DNA of 64,000 nucleotides from Fistulifera solaris (lineage: Eukaryota), in assembly GCA_030295235.1 (NCBI GenBank), contig AP026162.1, positions 992,001 through 1,056,000 of the forward strand, in the 5' to 3' direction. The translations under genes were made by a program, and so were the position numbers. This document shows, in pieces, positions 3,701-63,115 of this stretch. Positions within the stretch are counted from its first letter, which is position 1. The number at the start of each line of letters is the position of its first letter. The notes beneath the pieces were generated by a model, which saw only the letters and a program-made list of their open reading frames with translations, did not search any database and had not been told where the DNA came from.

Positions 3701-4635
3701 CGACCTATGTGCGATCGCTTTTGACCCAAATTACGCTCTCTTTCGTGTCACAGATGGTGCTGGCGATTGTATGTACCCTAATCCGTCATCCGCAGCTGCT
3801 CATGGTTCGGATCACATAACTCTTTTGAATTCCTTGGCCGCATACTCGGGAAAGCTCTTTTGAAGGAATCACGATACATCCTCGATTTGCGCACTTTTTT
3901 CTGAGCTTTCTTCGCGGAGACTACAATTATTTACACATGCTACCAGATTTAAGCACCGTCGATCCTCAACTGTACAACAATTTAATGTTCCTGAAGACGT
4001 ACGATGGCGACGCCAGAGACCTTTGTCTATCTTTTACCGTTACCACGGATGACTTTGGCGGTACGAAAGAAATTCCGTTGGTTCCGAAGGGTGATTCCCT
4101 AGAGGTGACTAACGCGAATAAATTACGATACATTGGTCTAGTTGCCAAGTATTATGTCGTGGATCGAGTGAAGGAGCAAAGTGAAGCGTTCACTCGCGGG
4201 TTGTGGGAAGTGATTGATCGTTCGTGGTTGCGAATCTTCAACGAGCCTGAGTTACAGGTGTTAATTAGCGGAGCATCGGACGGCAAACTGGATGTAGAAG
4301 ATATGAAAGCCAATACACGATACGTTGGAGGTTTTACCGGGCTCGATCGTACAGTGGCGAGATTCTGGAATGTTGTTGCTCGATTTGACAGCAAACAGCA
4401 GGCAGATCTGTTGCGATTTGTGACAAGCTGCGAACGACCTCCTCCTTTGGGTTTTGGGAGCATGAATCCTCCCTTTACTATCCAGCGCGTCGGCATATTG
4501 CGAGACGGTGATAAACTCCCAACAGCGTCTACATGTTTCAACATTCTGAAACTCCCTACATACAGCAGCGAGAAAGTCCTCCGTGATCGACTTTTACTGG
4601 CAATTCAGTCTGGAGCTGGATTCGAATTGGCGTAG
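716..4635 (+). CDS. HECT-domain E3 ubiquitin ligase (UBE3B/C, UPL6/7-like), split by several frameshifts
   Basis: Consecutive overlapping ORFs 716-1075, 1072-2559, 2556-3863 and 3937-4635. HECT motifs: ETGVDAGGLFKEF, LLRFVTSCERPPPLGF, LPTASTCFNILKLP (catalytic Cys), C-terminal GFELA. Confidence 0.9.
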
Positions 4636-4719: not shown

Positions 4720-5374
4720 TTATAGTTCAGGGCTGCTGGCAGGAGTCAATTGATCAAGAATGTGAATTCGTTCTTGAAGCCAAGCTACAAGAAAACATTG
4801 AGCAAAATATGAGACAGAGTAAGAAAACAAAGTACAAAAGCAACGCCAGAACTCACATTTCAATGCCTTTTCCATAGGCTTGCCTTGCATACTGATCAGG
4901 CGCTGCAACTCCTTCGATACGGCATCTACATCCTTGCCTTTCCATTTGGCAACATACTCACGCGCCTTCTCATCACATGTTTTTCTCGGTATCGTCGACA
5001 TCACATTTCGCAGCGAGCTCCACGTCGACGTACGCCATCAAGTGATCAAAGGAACGTTGACCGGAGTATTTCTCTTCCTCACCGTTCTTGTATACTTTGA
5101 TTGTTGGATATCCCGTAACACCATTCTCCTTACAAAGGTTTTCTTCTTCTCCACAGTTCACATCTGCGATGAAGACAGAGCTGTGAGCCTCTTCCGCCAA
5201 CCGATCCCAGTCGGTTTCATCTTGGTGCAGTGACCGCACCACGACTGATAAAATTTGATCATCCCATTTTTCCCCGACGACACGAGTTCATAAAAGGCTT
5301 TTCTCGTCCAGCTGTTGCGTACCCACAGCAATTTGAATGTAAAGTGTTACACTAATAAGGGAAAGGAACTTCAT
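4720..5374 (-). CDS. Secretory thioredoxin/PDI-like protein with WCGHC active site (frameshifted)
   Basis: Manual minus-strand read from ATG 5374 gives signal-like MKFLSLISVTLYIQIAVG, then KFYQSWCGHCTKMK, and ADVNC...GYPTIKVY...YSGQRS. Indels occur near 5300, 5213 and ~4980. Confidence 0.8.
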
Positions 5375-5586
5375 CTTGATCATTTCAACCGAATAGCAGG
5401 TGTCTCTTTATTAGTGATAATAAGCAAGACGCCATTTCGGTTTTTGCGCGTCGCGATCGCCGTTTTCCGCGATAAAACGCAGCGAGCAAAAAAATAGTTT
5501 GAGTCGTCTACATTTTGTTCAACTGTTCGAGTACCACTCGACACTGACCGGTATTGCCCAAGATCTTTTTCCTTTGTTTTTCGCCG

Positions 5587-5738
5587 TGTTGTTTGCCAGT
5601 TTCTGTACGTCAACCGACCAACCCGTAACCCTCTCGGATCACGGCATCCACCAGTATTCGGAGCGACCATTTGATAGCAACCTCGTAGCTCATAATAATT
5701 GAGATCACCTTATCATCATCTAGAGGTTACCATCAATA
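5587..5738 (+). repeat. 5' LTR (152 bp, TGTTG...CAATA)
   Basis: Direct repeat identical by eye to 10953-11104 and preceded by the TSD. Confidence 0.95.
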
Positions 5739-5750
5739 GATCTCAATTAT
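5739..5750 (+). promoter_or_regulatory. Putative self-priming primer-binding site GATCTCAATTAT
   Basis: Abuts the 5' LTR. It is the exact reverse complement of LTR 5695-5706 (ATAATTGAGATC). No TGG tRNA-type PBS start is present. Confidence 0.75.
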
Positions 5751-5839
5751 CTTTTTTCTTTCCTTTATCTTTCGCGAATTGATTCACCGACAACAGTCGT
5801 CAATCTGTGACTTGTGGCGTCGTTGTTGCCACTAGTGCA

Positions 5840-6924
5840 ATGTCCACCATCGACCCCAATTTCCCCCAGTTTCCCAACAGGGCTCTGGATGTCATCCCCG
5901 GACGCCCCACTTCATATACTTTGCGCATCCTGAAACGGCAAGTGTATGCAAATGCTGGTGCTATCCGTTCCGTACGTGGTGGTGGGGCCCATGGTCATTT
6001 GGGCGTTGCCATGCCCGGCCGAATATTTTGGCGTTGACCAATCAGCATTTCATCCCACCCCCTAACCCCGGATTGCCTCCGGTGCCCCAACAGGGGGACA
6101 CGAATTATGTTCTTACCGCCACGCGACAAGCTTACGATGCTGCGGTGGCGGAATTCAATACGTACACTGCTCTTATTGCCACTCTCCGCGCGCAAATTTT
6201 GGCCGCTGTGGAACCAATCTACCGTGAGGAACTCCTTGATCCGCTCCATGAGTACAATCTTGTGAGCATTTGCGATTTTCTGGCATTTTTGGATAATCAG
6301 TACGGTCAGATGACGGCCTTGGATTACGAAAACAATCGTGAACAGCTTTCCAATCAATGGGATCCCTCTAACCCTATTGAGCATTTATGGGCGACATTGC
6401 CAAAATCAAGGCCATTGATCCTAACATTACGGACGCAACGGTTATCCTCAAAACTCAGGACGCGTTGGCCAAATCTGGAGTATTCCATTACCACTTGCAG
6501 ACTTGGCGCGATAAACCGGCGGCTGAGCAGACGTGGGCGAATTTCAAGGATCATTTCACGCGCGGATTCTGATCGTAAACACAACCTTACCACTCAGGCG
6601 GCAGGCTTTCACAGTGCACACATGGCTGCCACATTCGCCAATCCCATTGCAGCAGCCGCGGGTAAAAATCCACCGTCTTCTGGCACACCGATCCCCACGG
6701 CTGGATTGGAACTCTTCTATTGTTGGTCCCACGGACTCAACCTGACCCACAACGGAGACGCATGCAAGAACCCGGAACCTGGCCACCATGCCGATGCGAC
6801 TGCGGCCAATCGCAAGGGCGGAAGTGAAAAGTTGCGCTTTGGAAAATCCGGCAAACCGAGCCGTAATGGTCGTCGCAACAATCCTTTGGCCAACTCGGCC
6901 GCTGCCCCTGAGCCTTCCGAATAG
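5840..6924 (+). CDS. gag: Retrotransposon Gag (frameshifted)
   Basis: ATG at 5840. GGAHGHLG motif, WDPSNPIE, and CoDi-type knuckle YCWSHG...H...C...NRKGGS. Ends at TAG 6922-6924. Confidence 0.85.
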
Positions 6925-9900
6925 GGACGAGGGGAGCCTGAGCCAATTTGTCAGAACGATGTTAAGTTTAACACCACGTTAACTTCTCCGCCGTCTGTTT
7001 CTAATTCTAGCCCAGGTCCCCCCGCTCATCTCATTGCTGACTCAGGTAGTACCGGCAATTACGTCAGCAGTAATTTTCCGTCCTGAATATTGTCCCCACC
7101 AACAACCCTATTCACATTACCATTCCCGACGGATCAACCCTTACCTCTACCCACGAAGGCATCTTAGACTTCCCCGGGTTGGCGCCGGCAGCTCGCCATG
7201 TCCACATTTTCCCGGAACTCCACCAGTGTTCTCTTCTTTCCATTGGTCAACTGTGCGAGTCGCGGGATATCATGTACGGTTTGATGCCACGACCATGGCC
7301 GTCCACGACAGTCTTGACAACATTGTCCTCACTGGTCACCGCGATCGTGGTACCGGCTTATGGCATGTTCCAATTCCGCCTATTCCAGTCCCGCATGCCT
7401 CTATGCCAACACCGGGGCCTCCGCCTCAGCCCATGGCCGCCCGTGCAATTGGTGCACCCGCCCACGGCTGAACTGGTAGCTTTTGCTCATGCCTCTTTGT
7501 TCTCACCGGCATTATCAACACTGGAAGCCGCACTTTTGCGGGGCTTTCTTACCAACTTCCCGGGTCTCACGCTTGCCAGTCTCCGGAAGTATCCACCGCG
7601 CAGTCTCGCGAATGCACAAGGGGCACATGGATCAAATTCGAAAAAATCTGAGGTCCACTAAGCACCTACCCGGCCCTCCTACTGATGCACTATTGTTTCC
7701 CGGCGACACAGAGCTTGAGGATCAACAACCACAACAGTTGGCGGCACGCACAAATTTTTGCTACATCAGCATTATTGAACCTACAGGTCAAATCTATACC
7801 GATCAGACCGGCAAATTCATCACGCCGTCTACAACTGGTAATAATTATCTCATGGTTCTTTATGATTACGACAGCAATTCTATCTGGGCACAGCCATACC
7901 CTACTAAAACAAGTGCCAGTCTTGTGACCGCCTACAAAAAGCTCCATAATCGTCTTGTCCGTGGAGGCCTACGACCTCTGCAACGCTTAGATAATGAGGC
8001 TTCCCATGAGTTAAAAGAGTTCATGACGGATGAAGGAATTGATTACCAGCTTGTCCCGCCCGGCAGTCCATCGCCGCTTAATGCTGCCGAACGTGCTATC
8101 CGCACCTTTGCCAATCATTTCATTGCGGGTTTATGCAGTACCGATGTCAACTTTCCCTTGCATCTGTGGGATCAACTTATCCCACAAGCCGAAATCACGT
8201 TAAATTTGATGCGTGGTTCCCGAATCAACCCAAATCTATCTGCCTTCAGCGCAACTCAATGGCACCTTTGACTTTAACCGTCACCCACTTGGACCACCCG
8301 GCACCTTTGTCCTTGCCCATGAAAAACCAAGTAACCGCACTACTTGGTCGCCTCATGCCTTGGAAGCCTGGTATGTTGGTCCTGCTCTTGAATCCTATCG
8401 GTGCTACAGAGTGTGGATTATTGATACACGCGACACTCGCATTTGCGATACACTCGAGTGGTTCCCGCAACATGTCAAAATTCCAGCCAGTTCGTCCACC
8501 GACCTCATCTATTCTGCACTACAAGATATCCTGTATGCTTTGCAAAATCCGTCACCGGCATCCCCTCTTGCCCCACGCACAGATAGTCAAACACAGGCAC
8601 TCCAGGATGTTGTCACTTTGCTCACGACCATATGTACGGATGAGGATGCCGCACTTCCCAACGTGACTTCGATTCCGGCAATTGCGCCCACTTCCAAGGG
8701 TGGTGCCCAAAACGGTCCCCGACATCGCTCCACTTCCAAGGGTGGAGCCAAGAAAGGTGCATTTTGACCCCAACATACCATCCAGCGATCGCACAACCAC
8801 TCAACTTTATCGTGAATTCCAACAGCCGGCGATCTCCAGACCGCCCTGTGCCTCCCGGAGCAAACCCGACAGAGCCTGTTATGCCCACCACCTACCGTGA
8901 ATTAACTGGGCCTGTGGGCCGCCGCAATCGGCGCACTCAACGCCGCGCTCAACACAAGAAAGCTACTGCTGGTCCACACCTCATGGCCGGTGTCCCGCGT
9001 CGTTCTGGCCGTCGCCCAAACCTAAAGTTCCCTTTGCCGCTCCTGCTGTTGCCGCTACCGCACCTACGACACCCTCTATCACTCTCCCTTTGTTTGCGTT
9101 TTCATGGTACCGCGTTAAATCCCGACACCGGACGTGTAGCTGAATACCGTGAGCTCAGCCAATGTACCACCGGTCCCCTCTGGCAAAAAAGCAAATTGTG
9201 ATGAAATTGGACGCCTTTTTCAGGGCCTCGGACCGTCCTCCAAAATGCCCACTGGCACGGGATACATGCCACTTCATCTACCATCACGAGGTCCCTGAGG
9301 GTAAAACTGTCACCCACGTCCAAAGTCGTTTTGCGCTGATCGACCGGAAAAGGCCGATCCGAACGTGTTCGATGGACTGCGGGCGGTGATCGGATCCAGT
9401 ACCTTGGCGATGTTAGCACCCAAACGGCCGATGTCATTACGGTCAAAGTCCTTATCAACAGTGTTCTCAGTACTCAATGCTCAAGCAATGTCCATGGACC
9501 TCAAAGACTTTTACCTCACGGGCGAATCTTGACGAGTATGAATATATTCGGGTTCCGGTTTACCTCATTCCGACTTCATCATCGACTTGTATCAACTTCA
9601 CGACAAAATTCACAATGGTTTTCTTTATGTCGAGGGTCCGCTTAAAGGCATGTACGGCCTCCCACAGGCCGGCAAACTCGCACATGACCGGCTCCGTAAA
9701 TATCTTGCTCCCCACGGCTATGTTCCATGCACCCACACCCACGGACTTTGGCGCCACACAACATCCAATTTACTTTTTACTCTGGTCGTGGATGATTTCT
9801 TTGTTAAATACACAGAGCGCCAACAAGCGGAAAACTTACTTCAACTTCTCCAGCAATATTATGTTGTGAAAACCGATTGGTCGGCCAGTCGACACGTCGG

Positions 9901-11068
9901 TCTCACAATCAATTGGGACTATGACAATCGCGACGGCTGATATATCCATGCCCGGCTACGTCGAACGTGCTCTATCCCGCTTTGAACACCCAACGCCCGG
10001 CTAAACCAGAACATTCTCCTCACGCCTGGACGGCACCGATTTACGGATCACGTCAACAATACGCCCCAAACGTTTGACGATGCCCCACAAGTTAGCCCTG
10101 CTGTCACCACTCGAATCCAGGAAATTTTGGGAACATTGTTGTATTATGCCCGCGCGGTTGATTGTTCTTTACTTCCGGCCATCGGCACTCTCGCTACTCA
10201 ACAAGCCCACGCCACCGAACACACTGTTGAAGCTATCACGCAATTGCTCAATTATTGTGCCACACACCCCGATGCTACCGTCCGGCCTTCTGATATGATC
10301 TTGCACATTGAAAGTGATGCTTCCTATCTTTCTGAAACAAAGGCTCGCTCACGGGCAGCCGGCTACCACTATCTCAGCTCCACTCCAAGCACCAGTGACA
10401 CGCCGCCGCCTTTCAATGGACCCATTGCCGTGCATTCCACCATCCTGAAAGAAGTTGTATCCAGTGCTGCTGAAGCTGAACTTGCGGCTTTATTTTACAA
10501 CGGAAAGGAAGCCTGTCCGATTCGCACTGCACTTGAAGAAATGAATCACCCTCAGCCCGCCACGCCCATTGTCACCGACAATAGCACCGCCAGTGGAATT
10601 GCAAACGATACTGTTAAACAAAAACGCTCCAAAGCAATGGATATGCGTTTTTATTGGATTCGCGATCGTGTTCGACAAGGCCAGTTCCACATTTATTGGC
10701 AAAGAGGCGAAACAAACAAAGCAGATTATTTCACCAAGCATCACTCGCGCAAATATCATCAGCAAATGCGCCCCGTTTATTTTGTGGATCCACCGGAGCG
10801 CTCGAATTATTATGCGTGCCTAGCGCATGAAACTGAAGATGAAAATCCCCGTGCTTTTCATCGCGATGAAAATGAAAAACGAAAAAATCGGCACGACTCA
10901 GCATCTTACGGGACTGCGTCTCTCTTCGCTCCTCCTACTGCTGGCAAGGGTGTGTTGTTTGCCAGTTTCTGTACGTCAACCGACCAACCCGTAACCCTCT
11001 CGGATCACGGCATCCACCAGTATTCGGAGCGACCATTTGATAGCAACCTCGTAGCTCATAATAATTGA
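6925..11068 (+). CDS. pol: Retrotransposon Pol (PR-IN-RT-RH), many frameshifts; in frame with gag beyond TAG
   Basis: The gag frame continues GRGEPEP...HLIADSGSTGNYV after the TAG. IN, RT and RH motifs follow in successive ORFs. The last ORF ends at TGA 11066-11068 inside the 3' LTR. Confidence 0.85.
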
Positions 11069-11104
11069 GATCACCTTATCATCATCTAGAGGTTACCATC
11101 AATA
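10953..11104 (+). repeat. 3' LTR (152 bp)
   Basis: Identical to the 5' LTR. Preceded by the short purine-rich tract GGCAAGGGTG (PPT candidate) and followed by the TSD CGCCG. Confidence 0.95.
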
Positions 11105-11226
11105 CGCCGCGCCTCATTTTTGTTCTCCACCACAACAAACAATGCTCGAATGCACTACGTTTCTTTCACACTCCCCATTAAAGTCTTTATCCAAGATTTG
11201 TCTGCTTTCTAAAGTCCCAAGAGTAA

Positions 11227-12071
11227 ATGGGCTGGCCACAGGATTCTTCTTCTTCGAGTCCGTTCGATTGGCTGAATGATTACGTATCCGTCTCCCCGCA
11301 ACTTCAAAATGTGCTAAACGATGCCACCCCGCCCCAGCTCGTCTGTGTGGGACTCGCTTGTTCCGCTTCGTTCGTCGCCGGATGGAAAACGGCACGGTCG
11401 GGGTCTTCCTGGAAACGCATTACGTCCATTGCCGATATATCCTCCTCTCAGATGGGTCCAACGACGCCGTTTTTGCGCGGTCGCGTCGTGTCAGTGAGCG
11501 ACGGAGATACCTTTCGATTTCTGCATCTGCCCACTCGGTTTCATTCGTCTCACTTGGGCGATCGAAAAATGGCGGATGTTACTTTGCCAATTCGAATCTG
11601 TACCATTGATACACCCGAAACAGCAAAATTCGGTAAGCAGGGACAGCCCTTTGGCGACGAGGCCAAGGATTATTTGAAAGCAATGATAATGGATCGGATA
11701 GTAAACGTAAAGGTTCTTGAGAAAGACCAGTATGGTCGTGGTGTCGCTGAAGTCTACCGACCTGGTCCGTTTTTGGGCTGGCCTCGAAAGTACATAGATC
11801 AGGAAATGCTGAAAGTAAGTTCGTGCGGTTCGTCTTTCGACGAAGAAGTTTGTTAACCTAATGACCCTGAATGGCTTACATCGCATTCCATTGCTCTTTG
11901 ATTCACAAGGCGGGTCTTGCGGAAGTTTACGTAGGAGCTGGGGCTGTCTATGGACACAAGAGAAAGGAAGCCTATCTTCAGATGCAGTCAAAGGCTGAAC
12001 GAAGGAAAGTCGGGATGTGGTCATTGTACAATCGCGAGTCTGCTGCTGAATTTAAATCAAGGATGAAGTAG
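11227..12071 (+). CDS. Staphylococcal nuclease (SNase/LCL3-like); intron 11815-11909
   Basis: Motifs VSVSDGDTFR, IRICTIDTPE, QPFGDEAK, DQYGR, and EMLK|AGLAEVY joined across a GTAAGT...AAG intron; ends AAEFKSRMK. The start codon is uncertain. Confidence 0.88.
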
Positions 12072-25948: not shown

Positions 25949-26630
25949 TGCTTCGTGACTGAAATGCAGTCGTGGTAAAGTTGAGGACACACCCTAGTCC
26001 TATAATAAATACAGAAATGTACAATCCGCAGCAAACTTTTCCGACGTCTAGCTTCGTGGCGGGCACTGCAAATGCGTCGGAGCGTATTTTTGTTGTGCAA
26101 AGGACAAATGAAGCTTCAAACGAACGTGCTGCGGCAGTTTGGGTCGGAAAAATTGTGCTTCGTGACTGATTTACAGTCCTGGAAAAAGGTAGCAGACACT
26201 TGGATCTATAGTAAATACAGAGGTCGACGATCCGCAAAGTTTTCCGACGTCTAGCTTCGTGGCGGGCACTTCAAATGCGTCGGAGCGTATTTTTGTTGTG
26301 CAAAGGACAAATGAAGCTTCAAACGAACGTGCTGCGGCAGTTTGGGTCGGAAAAATTGTGCTTCGTGACTGATTTACAGTCGTGGAAAAGGTAGCAGACA
26401 CTTGGATCTATAGTAAATGCAGAGGTCGACGATCCGCAAAGATTTTCGATGTATACCATCGTGGTGGGCACTTCGAATGCGTCGGAGCGTAGTTTTGTTG
26501 TGCAAAAGACAAATATAGCTTCGGTGATAGGAGTTTCGGAACGAAGGAGCGGTTGCAGTTTAGTTCAAAACTTTTTTCTTCGTGACTGAAATGCAGTCAT
26601 GGTAAGTTTAGGATACATGTTGGATGTATA
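25949..26630. repeat. ~205-bp tandem repeat, about 3.3 units
   Basis: CTTCGTGACTGA at 25951, 26158, 26361 and 26578. Long near-identical blocks are shared between units. Confidence 0.92.
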
Positions 26631-62500: not shown

Positions 62501-63115
62501 TGTTTTACTATAATCCAAACAGTTGGTTGTACCAATCCACGACTGATTTCAATCATACCTGGTAAGACTGCATCAGTCCTTCAATCCTTTCTTACATTCA
62601 GCCTGCAGCGCGAAATTTTTGTCTTTTTCGCATTTGATTATAGTCTCATTACAATAATAGATCCAAAGCTAATTATGCTCTCACCTTAGAATTTCACGCA
62701 ATTGCGATTTCGGCCGGCAATGTCTTCGGGTCCTGACCTTCATGTTTTACTATGATCCAAAGAGTTGGTTATACCAATTCAAGACTGGATTTCAATCATA
62801 AGACTGCATCAGTCCTTTTGTAATGCAGCCTGCAGCGCGAACTTTTTCGTCTTTTTTCGCGTTTGACCAAAGTCTCACTACAATAATGGACCCAAATCTA
62901 ATTATGTTCTTACTTTGAATTTCGCGAAATTGCGATTTCGGCCGGCAATGTCTTCGGGTCCTGACCTTCATGTTTTTACTATGATCCAAAAAGTTGGTTG
63001 TACCAATTCACGACTGGATTTCAATCATCTATCAATCCTGTATCCTTTGTATACATACAGCCCTCGCAGCCAAGGAGGTAGCGCGATTTTTTATTGTCTT
63101 TTTCGCGTTCGATTT
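62500..63115. repeat. ~235-bp tandem repeat, about 2.6 units
   Basis: TTTTACTA(T/A..)ATCCAAA.AGTTGGTT recurs at ~62503, ~62745 and ~62975. AATTGCGATTTCGGCCGGCAATGTCTTCGGGTCCTGACC occurs twice. Confidence 0.88.

Follow-up and report, generated by a model that had tools for sequence, protein, structure and literature searches.

The window analysed is a stretch of 64,000 nucleotides, and all positions refer to it. It contains a 5.5-kb element (5582-11109, including the target-site duplications) that is a Ty1/copia LTR retrotransposon, apparently of the diatom Fistulifera solaris. "C6 copy" below denotes a second copy of the element, and "X1" a sequencing run. The features were as follows.

5582..5586, no strand: target-site duplication, left copy (5 bp, CGCCG)
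5587..5738, + strand: 5' LTR (152 bp, ends TG...TA)
5840..6921, + strand: gag (about 362 codons; small indels break the frame in the assembly)
6922..6924, + strand: in-frame UAG, the proposed readthrough codon (also in the C6 copy and X1 contig 2)
6925..6930, + strand: purine-rich spacer GGACGA, 6 nt (G at +1 and +5; identical in the C6 copy)
6931..6943, + strand: 5' arm of the stem (GGGG of the lower stem, an unpaired A, GCCUG of the upper stem, then GC)
6944..7009, + strand: variable loop (open in the pol frame; an inner hairpin can be folded)
7010..7023, + strand: 3' arm, GC-C-CAGGU-CCCCCC (codes for SPGPP)
7030..7380, + strand: aspartic protease, LIADSGSTG (Asp at 7039-7041; assembly indels break the frame past 7077)
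7480..8500, + strand: integrase region and SH3-like module (motifs YTDQTG, RLDNE and AAERAIRT)
9100..11068, + strand: reverse transcriptase (RT) and RNase H (pol stop at 11066-11068, within the 3' LTR)
10943..10952, + strand: putative PPT, a purine-rich tract adjoining the 3' LTR (a similar tract occurs in L027, L028, L029 and L034)
10953..11104, + strand: 3' LTR (identical to the 5' LTR)
11105..11109, no strand: target-site duplication, right copy (CGCCG, intact)

The two LTRs and the target-site duplication conform to copia membership. The LTR repeat was 100% identical (153 nt counting one flanking base), and X1 contigs had loose ends at 5587 and 5738, the borders of the 5' LTR. The order protease, integrase, RT, RNase H with a copia-type RT was established from the order of motifs, the RVT_2 match in the RT (E 1.5e-6, 28.5 bits) being under the Pfam cut-off of 31.6. 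The RT region had 2,234 relatives at E<=1e-30, many with PF07727. The three motifs of the integrase region, which we take to be those of the D-D-E integrase, were accompanied by a weak PF25597 match (E 0.009, below the cut-off). The NCBI gene model of the element, P0158, bears the UniRef name "integrase catalytic domain-containing protein"; it maps from 5840 with a drift of only 1-4 nt over gag. A motif of the form YCWSHG-x-H-x-C-x-H lies near the end of gag, from 6718 onward. The protease family profile matched 7,013 representatives. No Pfam family was matched for gag or protease, a PDB sequence search with the protease profile gave no significant match, and a scan of viral contigs gave only two weak matches, both unrelated. 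Matches of 99% and 100% to Fistulifera solaris proteins (NCBI) point to the diatom host; there are named relatives from Fragilaria and Nitzschia.

At the junction, gag ends in ...AAPEPSE and is followed by the TAG, after which the same frame runs on for 53 codons (GRGEPEP...HLIADSGSTGNYVSSNFPS) and includes the catalytic Asp. No in-frame ATG stands between the two, and the one ATG that occurs out of frame, at 6959, is followed by a run of just 7 codons. Gag and pol share one frame, interrupted by a single conserved stop, and pol has no start codon. Just past the active site the frame closes at 7084-7086; the cause is an indel of one base near 7077, which is absent from both X1 and the C6 copy. 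The arms of the stem, 6931-6943 (GGGGAGCCTGAGC) and 7010-7021 (GCCCAGGTCCCC), can pair. The original prediction had described the TAG, its frame, the lack of an ATG before LIADSGSTG and the pairing, and the sequence agrees with it on each. The minimum-free-energy fold of 6922-7030 contains the stem (-32.1 kcal/mol, z -2.45, equalled by 1 in 200 shuffles); for 6925-7038 with 25 shuffles, z was only -1.5. The fold of a single sequence is moderate evidence, and the weight comes from the relatives.

An assembly rich in indel errors and a few fused database proteins (see below) would be in keeping with a TAG that arose by faulty sequencing, or by nonsense mutation of a single-ORF element whose copy here is dead. 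This reading is nevertheless contradicted by two sources that carry the same TAG. Contig 2 of X1 spans 5857-7054, where a single letter differs (at 6030) and the TAG is kept; the X1 contigs are of short-read type, look like genomic DNA and may share the material of the assembly, and serve as a technical check only. This contig has a net gain of 4 letters, which equals the offset drift of the independent gene model upstream of 6559, and the net frame across the junction therefore appears unchanged (1 of the 6 gaps in the contig was itemised). In the C6 copy, which is 82% identical, the stop and both arms are unaltered; their conservation in other genomic copies had been put forward as a check. 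Identity was 25/25 over the stop and 5' arm (6919-6943) and 15/15 over the 3' arm (7008-7022), compared with 51/64 in the loop (6944-7007), 117/158 in the gag tail and 144/174 in the protease; one compensatory pair separates the two copies in the loop region. Judged by its retention in so diverged a copy, the stop is genuine and old, and the statement that it is not an indel error stands. With the LTRs identical, the target-site duplication intact and a single in-frame stop at this position in 37 of the 40 families scored among the best 80 metagenome loci, an error or a dead copy has almost no probability.

Those families were drawn from metagenome loci. The best 80 of 419 loci were taken, and the profile was built from readthrough-type elements, so that the sample is biased toward the best matches. 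A recognised protease motif was present in 75 loci and a gag-end motif in 60 of those. Among the 60, 55 had the two in frame with exactly one stop, none had no stop, none had two, and 5 were in another frame. Five loci in which the motif search had found nothing were inspected later: 3 had one in-frame stop, 1 (L096) had two, and 1 was without upstream DNA. Counted by family, 37 of the 40 with a visible gag end (best 80 of 419 loci) had exactly one in-frame stop; the single stop is clade-wide in the related families. The tree used was a quick tree. Five own-genome copies (L027, L029, L030, L032 and L034) were excluded from the 39-family counts because assembly indels make the reading of frames unreliable: it is solely through compensating indels that L030 comes out as fused and L029 as having one stop. 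Inspected by eye, all five have the stop and the motif.

The identity of the stop and its context were constrained. Over 39 families the junction stops were 22 TGA, 17 TAG and no TAA, compared with TAA shares of 110/257 among off-frame stops in the same spacers and 5/12 among pol terminators. G follows the TAG in 17/17 TAG families, and three pol-end TAGs are without a following G. A G occupies +5 in 31/39 families (14/17 of those with TAG), and +7, +8 and +9 are G in 35, 38 and 38 of 39. The spacer between stop and protease (29-63 codons) is open in frame in the 39 families; over 1,581 codons, 106 and 161 stops fall in the other two frames, which stay open in 1/39 and 0/39. A true sense codon at the junction, which the original prediction had named as fatal to it, was found in none of the DNA loci examined. 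The fused database proteins (P0017 and P0094 with Trp at the stop position, P0002, and the gene model P0180) are known as protein records or gene models.

The same prediction would have fallen with a spliced or separately initiated pol mRNA; at the level of sequence, neither a conserved splice acceptor nor a conserved Met was found at the junction across families. An in-frame spacer Met does occur in 14/39 families, an AUG overlaps the stop in three own-genome TGA copies, and a minor junction promoter exists in Tca2 (PMC2194720, in the portion consulted), all of which would suit a Pol whose RNA is initiated separately, or one produced by reinitiation at a spacer start codon. However, the window element and 25/39 families have no in-frame Met ahead of the catalytic Asp, the AUG that overlaps the stop is not in frame and is missing from the window element, and such initiation would not hold gag and pol in frame in 37/40 families; we regard it as very unlikely. 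Equally unlikely is the intron assumed by the public gene models, whose splicing would rid a minority of transcripts of the stop. The NCBI models P0158, P0160 and P0008 skip the junction (P0158 with a 183-nt jump), and the 3' arm often reads YAG-G (AG is there in 18/39 families). Yet the models of the window element and of its C6 relative delete the catalytic Asp, and 21/39 families are without that AG, several of them holding the helix through other pairs. The introns of P0158 are in any case unreliable because it skips twice more, in the integrase and the RT, with no stop in the window to account for the first. The spacer also has an open frame, which an intron would not require, and this too speaks against one. 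These models, which bridge the junction and lose the catalytic Asp, are probably wrong.

The stem was then compared among the families. Mean fold z over the 39 was -2.39 at the junction, versus -0.46 upstream and -0.87 downstream. The strand at +12 to +17 formed 4.87 of 6 pairs with its own 3' arm and 4.20 with the arms of other families; all six pairs formed in 13/39 own arms versus 4% with other families' arms (permutation p 5e-5, a value that, like the other permutation p-values, ignores relatedness among families). At least four pair types were present at each of positions 13, 15, 16 and 17. Non-overlapping 5' windows gave no pairing excess (p 0.25, 0.85, 0.91, 0.055 and 0.94), nor did four offset controls. 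The stem begins at +7, and the arms are 28-112 nt apart across families. Two conserved arms, compensatory changes and a variable loop between them, the pattern of Firth et al. (2011), were all present. Searches of 6800-7200 with Rfam covariance models gave no matches at E<=1. In related families, where conservation of the stem had been put forward as a check, one stop with a covarying upper stem is the rule; the stem is weak in some (z above -1 in 5/39), and the cognate duplex ranked first in only 7/39. In two families pol lies in the -1 frame, and the junction consists of a slippery-type heptamer, 5 nt and a similar GGG...CCC stem; this recurrence ties the stem to recoding.

The families with a weak stem leave some room, as does the precedent of Tca2 (PMC2194720, in the portion consulted), for a non-canonical bypass in which Pol comes from the full-length RNA and the local cassette is insufficient. 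It would call for distal RNA, a protein of the element, a hop by the ribosome or reinitiation at a non-AUG codon, and packaging or dimerisation may then be the main role of the stem. The constant 6-nt gap between stop and stem across families, the lack of TAA and the strict UAG-G instead fit decoding at the stop, and a stem of like geometry downstream of -1 slippery sites is in keeping with a local recoding stimulator. The bypass is accordingly considered improbable, if less so than separate initiation or an intron.

Programmed stop-codon readthrough, with an extended 3' stem-loop of alphavirus-like shape and a gammaretrovirus-like UAG-G context, is thus very probably how Pol is made, as originally proposed; the C6 copy, the family-wide single stop and the covarying stem, which are evidence from sequence, all favour it. 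For most ribosomes, translation would end with the UAG and yield Gag (about 362 aa). In a minority, a near-cognate tRNA would insert an amino acid, and translation would cross the 38 codons of the spacer and proceed through protease, integrase, RT and RNase H, so that programmed readthrough would fix the Gag : Gag-Pol ratio. The predicted signal consists of a leaky stop (UAG-G here, UGA elsewhere), a 6-nt purine-rich spacer and the extended stem-loop, whose G-rich/C-rich base, small internal loop and covarying upper helix would be located at the mRNA entry to the ribosome. The stop, its frame, its conservation and the covariation are observed; the passage of ribosomes, its rate, the residue inserted and stimulation by the stem are what these features suggest. 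Selenocysteine was rejected, the junction stop here being UAG. A changed genetic code and a single suppressor tRNA both fail as explanations, since host junctions use both stops (TAG here, TGA in L028 and L032) and a TAG ends the neighbouring HECT gene. The only tRNA gene within the 64-kb window was tRNA-Glu.

A broader reading, to which we give even weight for and against, assigns a single, so far undescribed recoding RNA element to an entire clade of diatom copia elements that is widespread in aquatic metagenomes. Its parts would be the 6-nt spacer, the G/C base stem, the small internal loop and the covarying upper helix. As a general stimulator it would serve the readthrough of both UAG-G and UGA and, in one sub-lineage, frameshifting to -1; UAG and UGA would have replaced each other repeatedly, possibly via a fused UGG state. 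If so, it would be the first defined recoding signal for diatom ribosomes and would supply dozens of independent natural variants with which to dissect the action of 3' structures on termination and slippage. To our knowledge, few cases of structure-stimulated readthrough lie outside RNA viruses; the present one would add a clade-wide, covariation-backed example and a likely answer to how a major diatom retrotransposon family sets its Gag : Pol ratio. Elements should not be scored as dead on account of the junction stop. The mechanism of stimulation also becomes testable, given dozens of natural variants that include the two leaky stops and an offshoot with frameshifting. In the consulted part of PMC3159437, how 3' structures stimulate readthrough is called undetermined.

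Readthrough between gag and pol is a known strategy (MuLV, Tca2, Tj1). Copia elements had been held usually to use other means; the arrangement is common in this lineage and, given Tca2, not new in copia. No paper on readthrough in diatom copia elements was found in the open-access literature. The closest described elements are the CoDi elements (Maumus et al. 2009, PMC2806351, portion consulted), with which the copia domain order and a diatom host are shared; the element is 5.5 kb long (CoDi range 5.2-8.1 kb), its LTR of 152 bp compares with a shortest CoDi LTR of 153 bp, and, like CoDi3.2, 4.2 and 4.3, it has no TG...CA LTR end. The tandem CCHC zinc fingers of CoDi6.2-6.5 were not seen in gag, which ends in a single YCWxHG-H-C-H motif and gave no Pfam zinc-knuckle match. 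No CoDi reference sequences were among the matches listed in the protein searches. The main text of PMC2806351 contains neither "readthrough" nor "read-through", and its consulted part describes no junction motif or stem.

Tj1, Tcry1 and Tosmo1-3 likewise form an LTR clade with one in-frame gag-pol stop, reported essential for transposition in Tj1; they are fission-yeast Ty3/gypsy elements with a strict GAA-TGA-CT and, in the part of the preprint consulted, no described stem (bioRxiv 10.1101/2022.12.06.519325). Tca2 of Candida albicans (Forbes et al. 2007, PMC2194720, portion consulted) is a Ty1/copia element with gag-UGA-pol, an 8-nt purine spacer and a predicted pseudoknot, and its junction by itself did not direct readthrough in S. 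cerevisiae. The present element shares with it the copia type, one in-frame stop, a purine-rich spacer and a predicted 3' structure. Unlike Tca2, a single element with UGA, it has UAG-G, a 6-nt spacer, an extended stem-loop and covariation over 39 families.

The proposed gammaretrovirus-type signal held in part. As in MuLV (PMC3159437 and PMC13517186, portions consulted), the UAG is followed by G and by a purine-rich spacer with conserved G1 and G5 (UAG-GGACGA, as in type III signals), and the structure lies within the N-terminal coding region of the protease. The compact 50-nt H-type pseudoknot that MuLV places 8 nt past the stop was not found here, judged by the start of the stem and the distance between the arms, which enclose a variable loop. 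The lineages are unrelated, and the likeness is presumably convergent. In shape the stem-loop is closer to the stimulators of alphaviruses, furo/pomoviruses and Drosophila kelch (Firth et al. 2011, PMC3159437, whose text has no occurrence of "retrotranspos-" or "diatom"). Those stimulators have mostly UGA-C and 7-12 nt spacers and come from RNA viruses and cellular genes; the present element resembles them in its short spacer, in the conservation of its two arms (10-14 bp, with a small bulge) and in a long loop that is poorly conserved.

Within its LTRs, the focal element (a 5.5-kb Ty1/copia retrotransposon) follows the copia order (gag, protease, integrase, RT, RNase H). Over RT/RNase H it shares 99% identity with a protein named Fistulifera solaris by NCBI, and a second protein so named matches, at 100% identity, the gag of a different element of this genome; the host is therefore F. 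solaris or a very close diatom. Both the focal element's copia affiliation and its diatom host are those of a CoDi (Copia from Diatoms) element. The element and its neighbors are listed by window coordinates.

3829-4635: HECT ligase gene, ending TAG, neighbor
near 4880-5380: putative short ORF on the opposite strand, neighbor
5587-5738 and 10953-11104: LTRs, 152 bp each, identical
both flanks of the LTR pair: CGCCG
11590-12070: SNase-domain gene, neighbor

The LTR ends are not TG...CA; they read TG...TA in the focal element and its own-genome copy L027, and TA...CA in two more such copies (L029 and L034). No primer-binding site was identified at the LTR/internal boundaries of these four and L028, whose internal regions begin with GATCTC, GAAGTT or GTT. 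A contig from sequencing run X1 bridges both flanks without the element (window 5567-11133), with 39 other letters between them; it is an allele or homeolog without the insertion. Four short elements of this genome (L031, L033, L035 and L037) have ca. 2-3 kb between repeats; protease and junction are absent from L033 and L035, which look like internally deleted derivatives. Two arrays of repeated units (ca. 200-240 bp) are found at window 25949-26619 and 62503-63028.

Translation bore out the original observation that gag (...AAPEPSE) ends at a TAG (6922-6924), past which the frame stays open into the protease with no in-frame ATG before the active site; the open stretch is 53 codons and includes LIADSGSTG (Asp at 7039-7041). 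The frame break at 7084 results from an indel near 7077 that is absent from X1 and from a second, 82%-identical copy of the element on contig C6. A comparison of the TAG with raw reads had been proposed; it is unchanged in X1 contig 2, which spans 5857-7054 with a single other letter (at 6030), X1 being perhaps the same material as the assembly. Since the net four extra letters of this contig match the drift of P0158, the public gene model of the focal element, upstream of 6559, we infer, with one of the contig's six gaps listed, that the junction frame stands. P0158 (1,611 aa) tracks the window, drifting from it by 1-4 nt besides three skips and one 6-nt step. Because it does so, and because X1 contigs have indels at the window's many frame breaks, these breaks are mostly assembly errors. 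Indels of 1-3 nt relative to X1 are frequent across the whole window and break most long genes; given their frequency, frameshift-like features elsewhere in the window are to be distrusted.

Both the TAG and the stem arms, expected to recur in other genomic copies, were kept in C6: the stop plus 5' arm is identical at 25/25 bases and the 3' arm at 15/15, compared to 117/158 in the gag tail, 51/64 in the loop and 144/174 in the later protease. The protease start (7023-7075) is likewise well kept (50/52). In five more same-genome elements (L028, L029, L030, L032 and L034), gag ends with TGA, followed by a like motif. Judged from sequence, the junction stop is real.

A protease profile yielded 419 metagenome loci, the best 80 of which were analyzed. 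The catalytic motif was recognized in 75, and 60 of these also had the gag-end motif YCWxHG. Among the 60, exactly one in-frame stop was present in 55 and pol lay in another frame in 5; neither a fused junction nor two stops occurred (0/60 each). The 15 loci lacking the gag motif had a stop 34-53 codons ahead of the Asp (12) or reached the contig end (3), and the five missed by the motif search had one stop (3), two stops (1) or no upstream DNA (1). Clustering of the loci with a gag end at 80% nucleotide identity gave 40 families, 37 of them in frame with one stop. The exceptions were L063 (the usual motif plus a spacer indel) and two families less than 80% alike, L040 and L042/L045, with pol in the -1 frame. 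Thirty-nine representatives (37 metagenome families, the focal element and L028) were compared further; in-frame openness was partly a selection criterion for them, and the unbiased figure is 37/40.

The junction stops of the representatives were TGA (22) or TAG (17), never TAA, a codon common in the same elements (110/257 off-frame spacer stops; 5/12 pol terminators, counted as loci rather than families). A G directly follows the stop in 17/17 TAG families, and G is found at +7, +8 and +9 (counted downstream of the stop) in 35/39, 38/39 and 38/39. Spacers are 29-63 codons long (n = 39), and Met is absent from 25/39; the two other frames, with 106 and 161 stops, are hardly ever open.

The two arms of the proposed stem lie where predicted, and the MFE structure computed for 6922-7030 pairs them, at -32.1 kcal/mol (z of -2.45, or -1.5 in a slightly different window). 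Mean fold z was -2.39 at the junction vs. -0.46 and -0.87 in flanking windows (Wilcoxon p = 7e-7 and 2e-5). Covariation in related families, a further expectation, was also detected: with 3' anchors picked solely by the C-rich run after them, +12 to +17 scored 4.87/6 with their own 3' arm vs. 4.20/6 with others' (p = 5e-5). The signal was present in windows overlapping +12 to +17 and absent away from them, and four offset controls gave no pairing excess among the 39 representatives. Whole-arm duplexes averaged -19.9 kcal/mol with own arms vs. -16.1 with others', the cognate ranking first in 7/39. All these tests disregard relatedness among the families, although long terminal branches separate them (a median of 0.7 changes per site). 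In the shared shape, the stop is followed after 6 nt by a base stem, in which GGG(A/G) faces a C-rich run, then by a single unpaired base opposite 1-3 C and an upper helix of 5-6 bp. The junction signal is a real, conserved feature, as comparison supports well.

Pol is very probably made by programmed readthrough of the junction stop, which would yield Gag-Pol. Readthrough would explain why gag and pol share a frame, why the spacer is open and often lacks Met, why the choice of stop codon is biased, and why the covarying stem lies at a fixed distance. Public gene models assume instead that an intron removes the stop, and P0158, P0160 and P0008 all skip the junction; however, P0158 thereby deletes the protease catalytic Asp, and an AG in the 3' arm is absent from 21/39 families. 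The NCBI model P0160 loses the Asp in the same way. These skips are probable annotation artefacts. Internal initiation of pol leaves the kept gag/pol frame unexplained, and a bypass like that of Tca2 (a Candida albicans Ty1/copia element), requiring more than the local cassette, is improbable. Two database proteins, P0017 and P0094, have Trp exactly at the stop position (..RPEE-W-ERGTA..; 2 of the 84 parsed from the best 150), and two further proteins, P0002 and P0180, are fused; these four count against a universal stop rule. The Trp of P0017 and P0094, known from protein records, would reflect a TGG copy or else a gene called with a different code.

In a quick protease-to-integrase tree (44 rows, L027 standing in for the focal element), P0017 was placed among TAG families, and the focal family was sister to a TGA family (SH-aLRT 97). 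The tree needed 8 changes for TAG and 9 for TGA, at least 3 being required by well-supported branches, which points to repeated switching between two leaky codons; no fixation of TAA at the junction stop was seen in its 44 rows. The two -1 families form one clade (SH-aLRT 100) within a mostly TGA group. They have a heptamer, G_AAU_UUU or G_GAU_UUU (a slippery type), then 5 nt and a GGGCCGACUG/CAGUCGAC-GCCC stem similar to that of readthrough-type families. This clade likely switched from readthrough to -1 frameshifting. There is about an even chance that, throughout a large clade of diatom elements, a single stem serves readthrough of both UAG and UGA as well as -1 frameshifting.

No paper describing the junction signal was found in the open-access literature searched, and the portions consulted of PMC2774666, PMC3587641 and PMC5009743 do not describe it. 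In the sections available, Maumus et al. (PMC2806351) report one or zero stop codon/frameshift between gag and pol in CoDi and do not use the word readthrough. Excerpts of other sources supply precedents. The gammaretrovirus MuLV shares UAG-G and a purine spacer with G1 and G5, but its compact pseudoknot geometry is absent in the focal element (PMC13517186). The diatom junction stem has the shape of the extended stem-loops that Firth et al. describe (PMC3159437), and retrotransposon precedents are Tca2, for a gag-stop-pol junction (PMC2194720), and Tj1/Tcry1/Tosmo (bioRxiv 10.1101/2022.12.06.519325). The recoding strategy itself is known; the diatom copia junction would be a new version of it.
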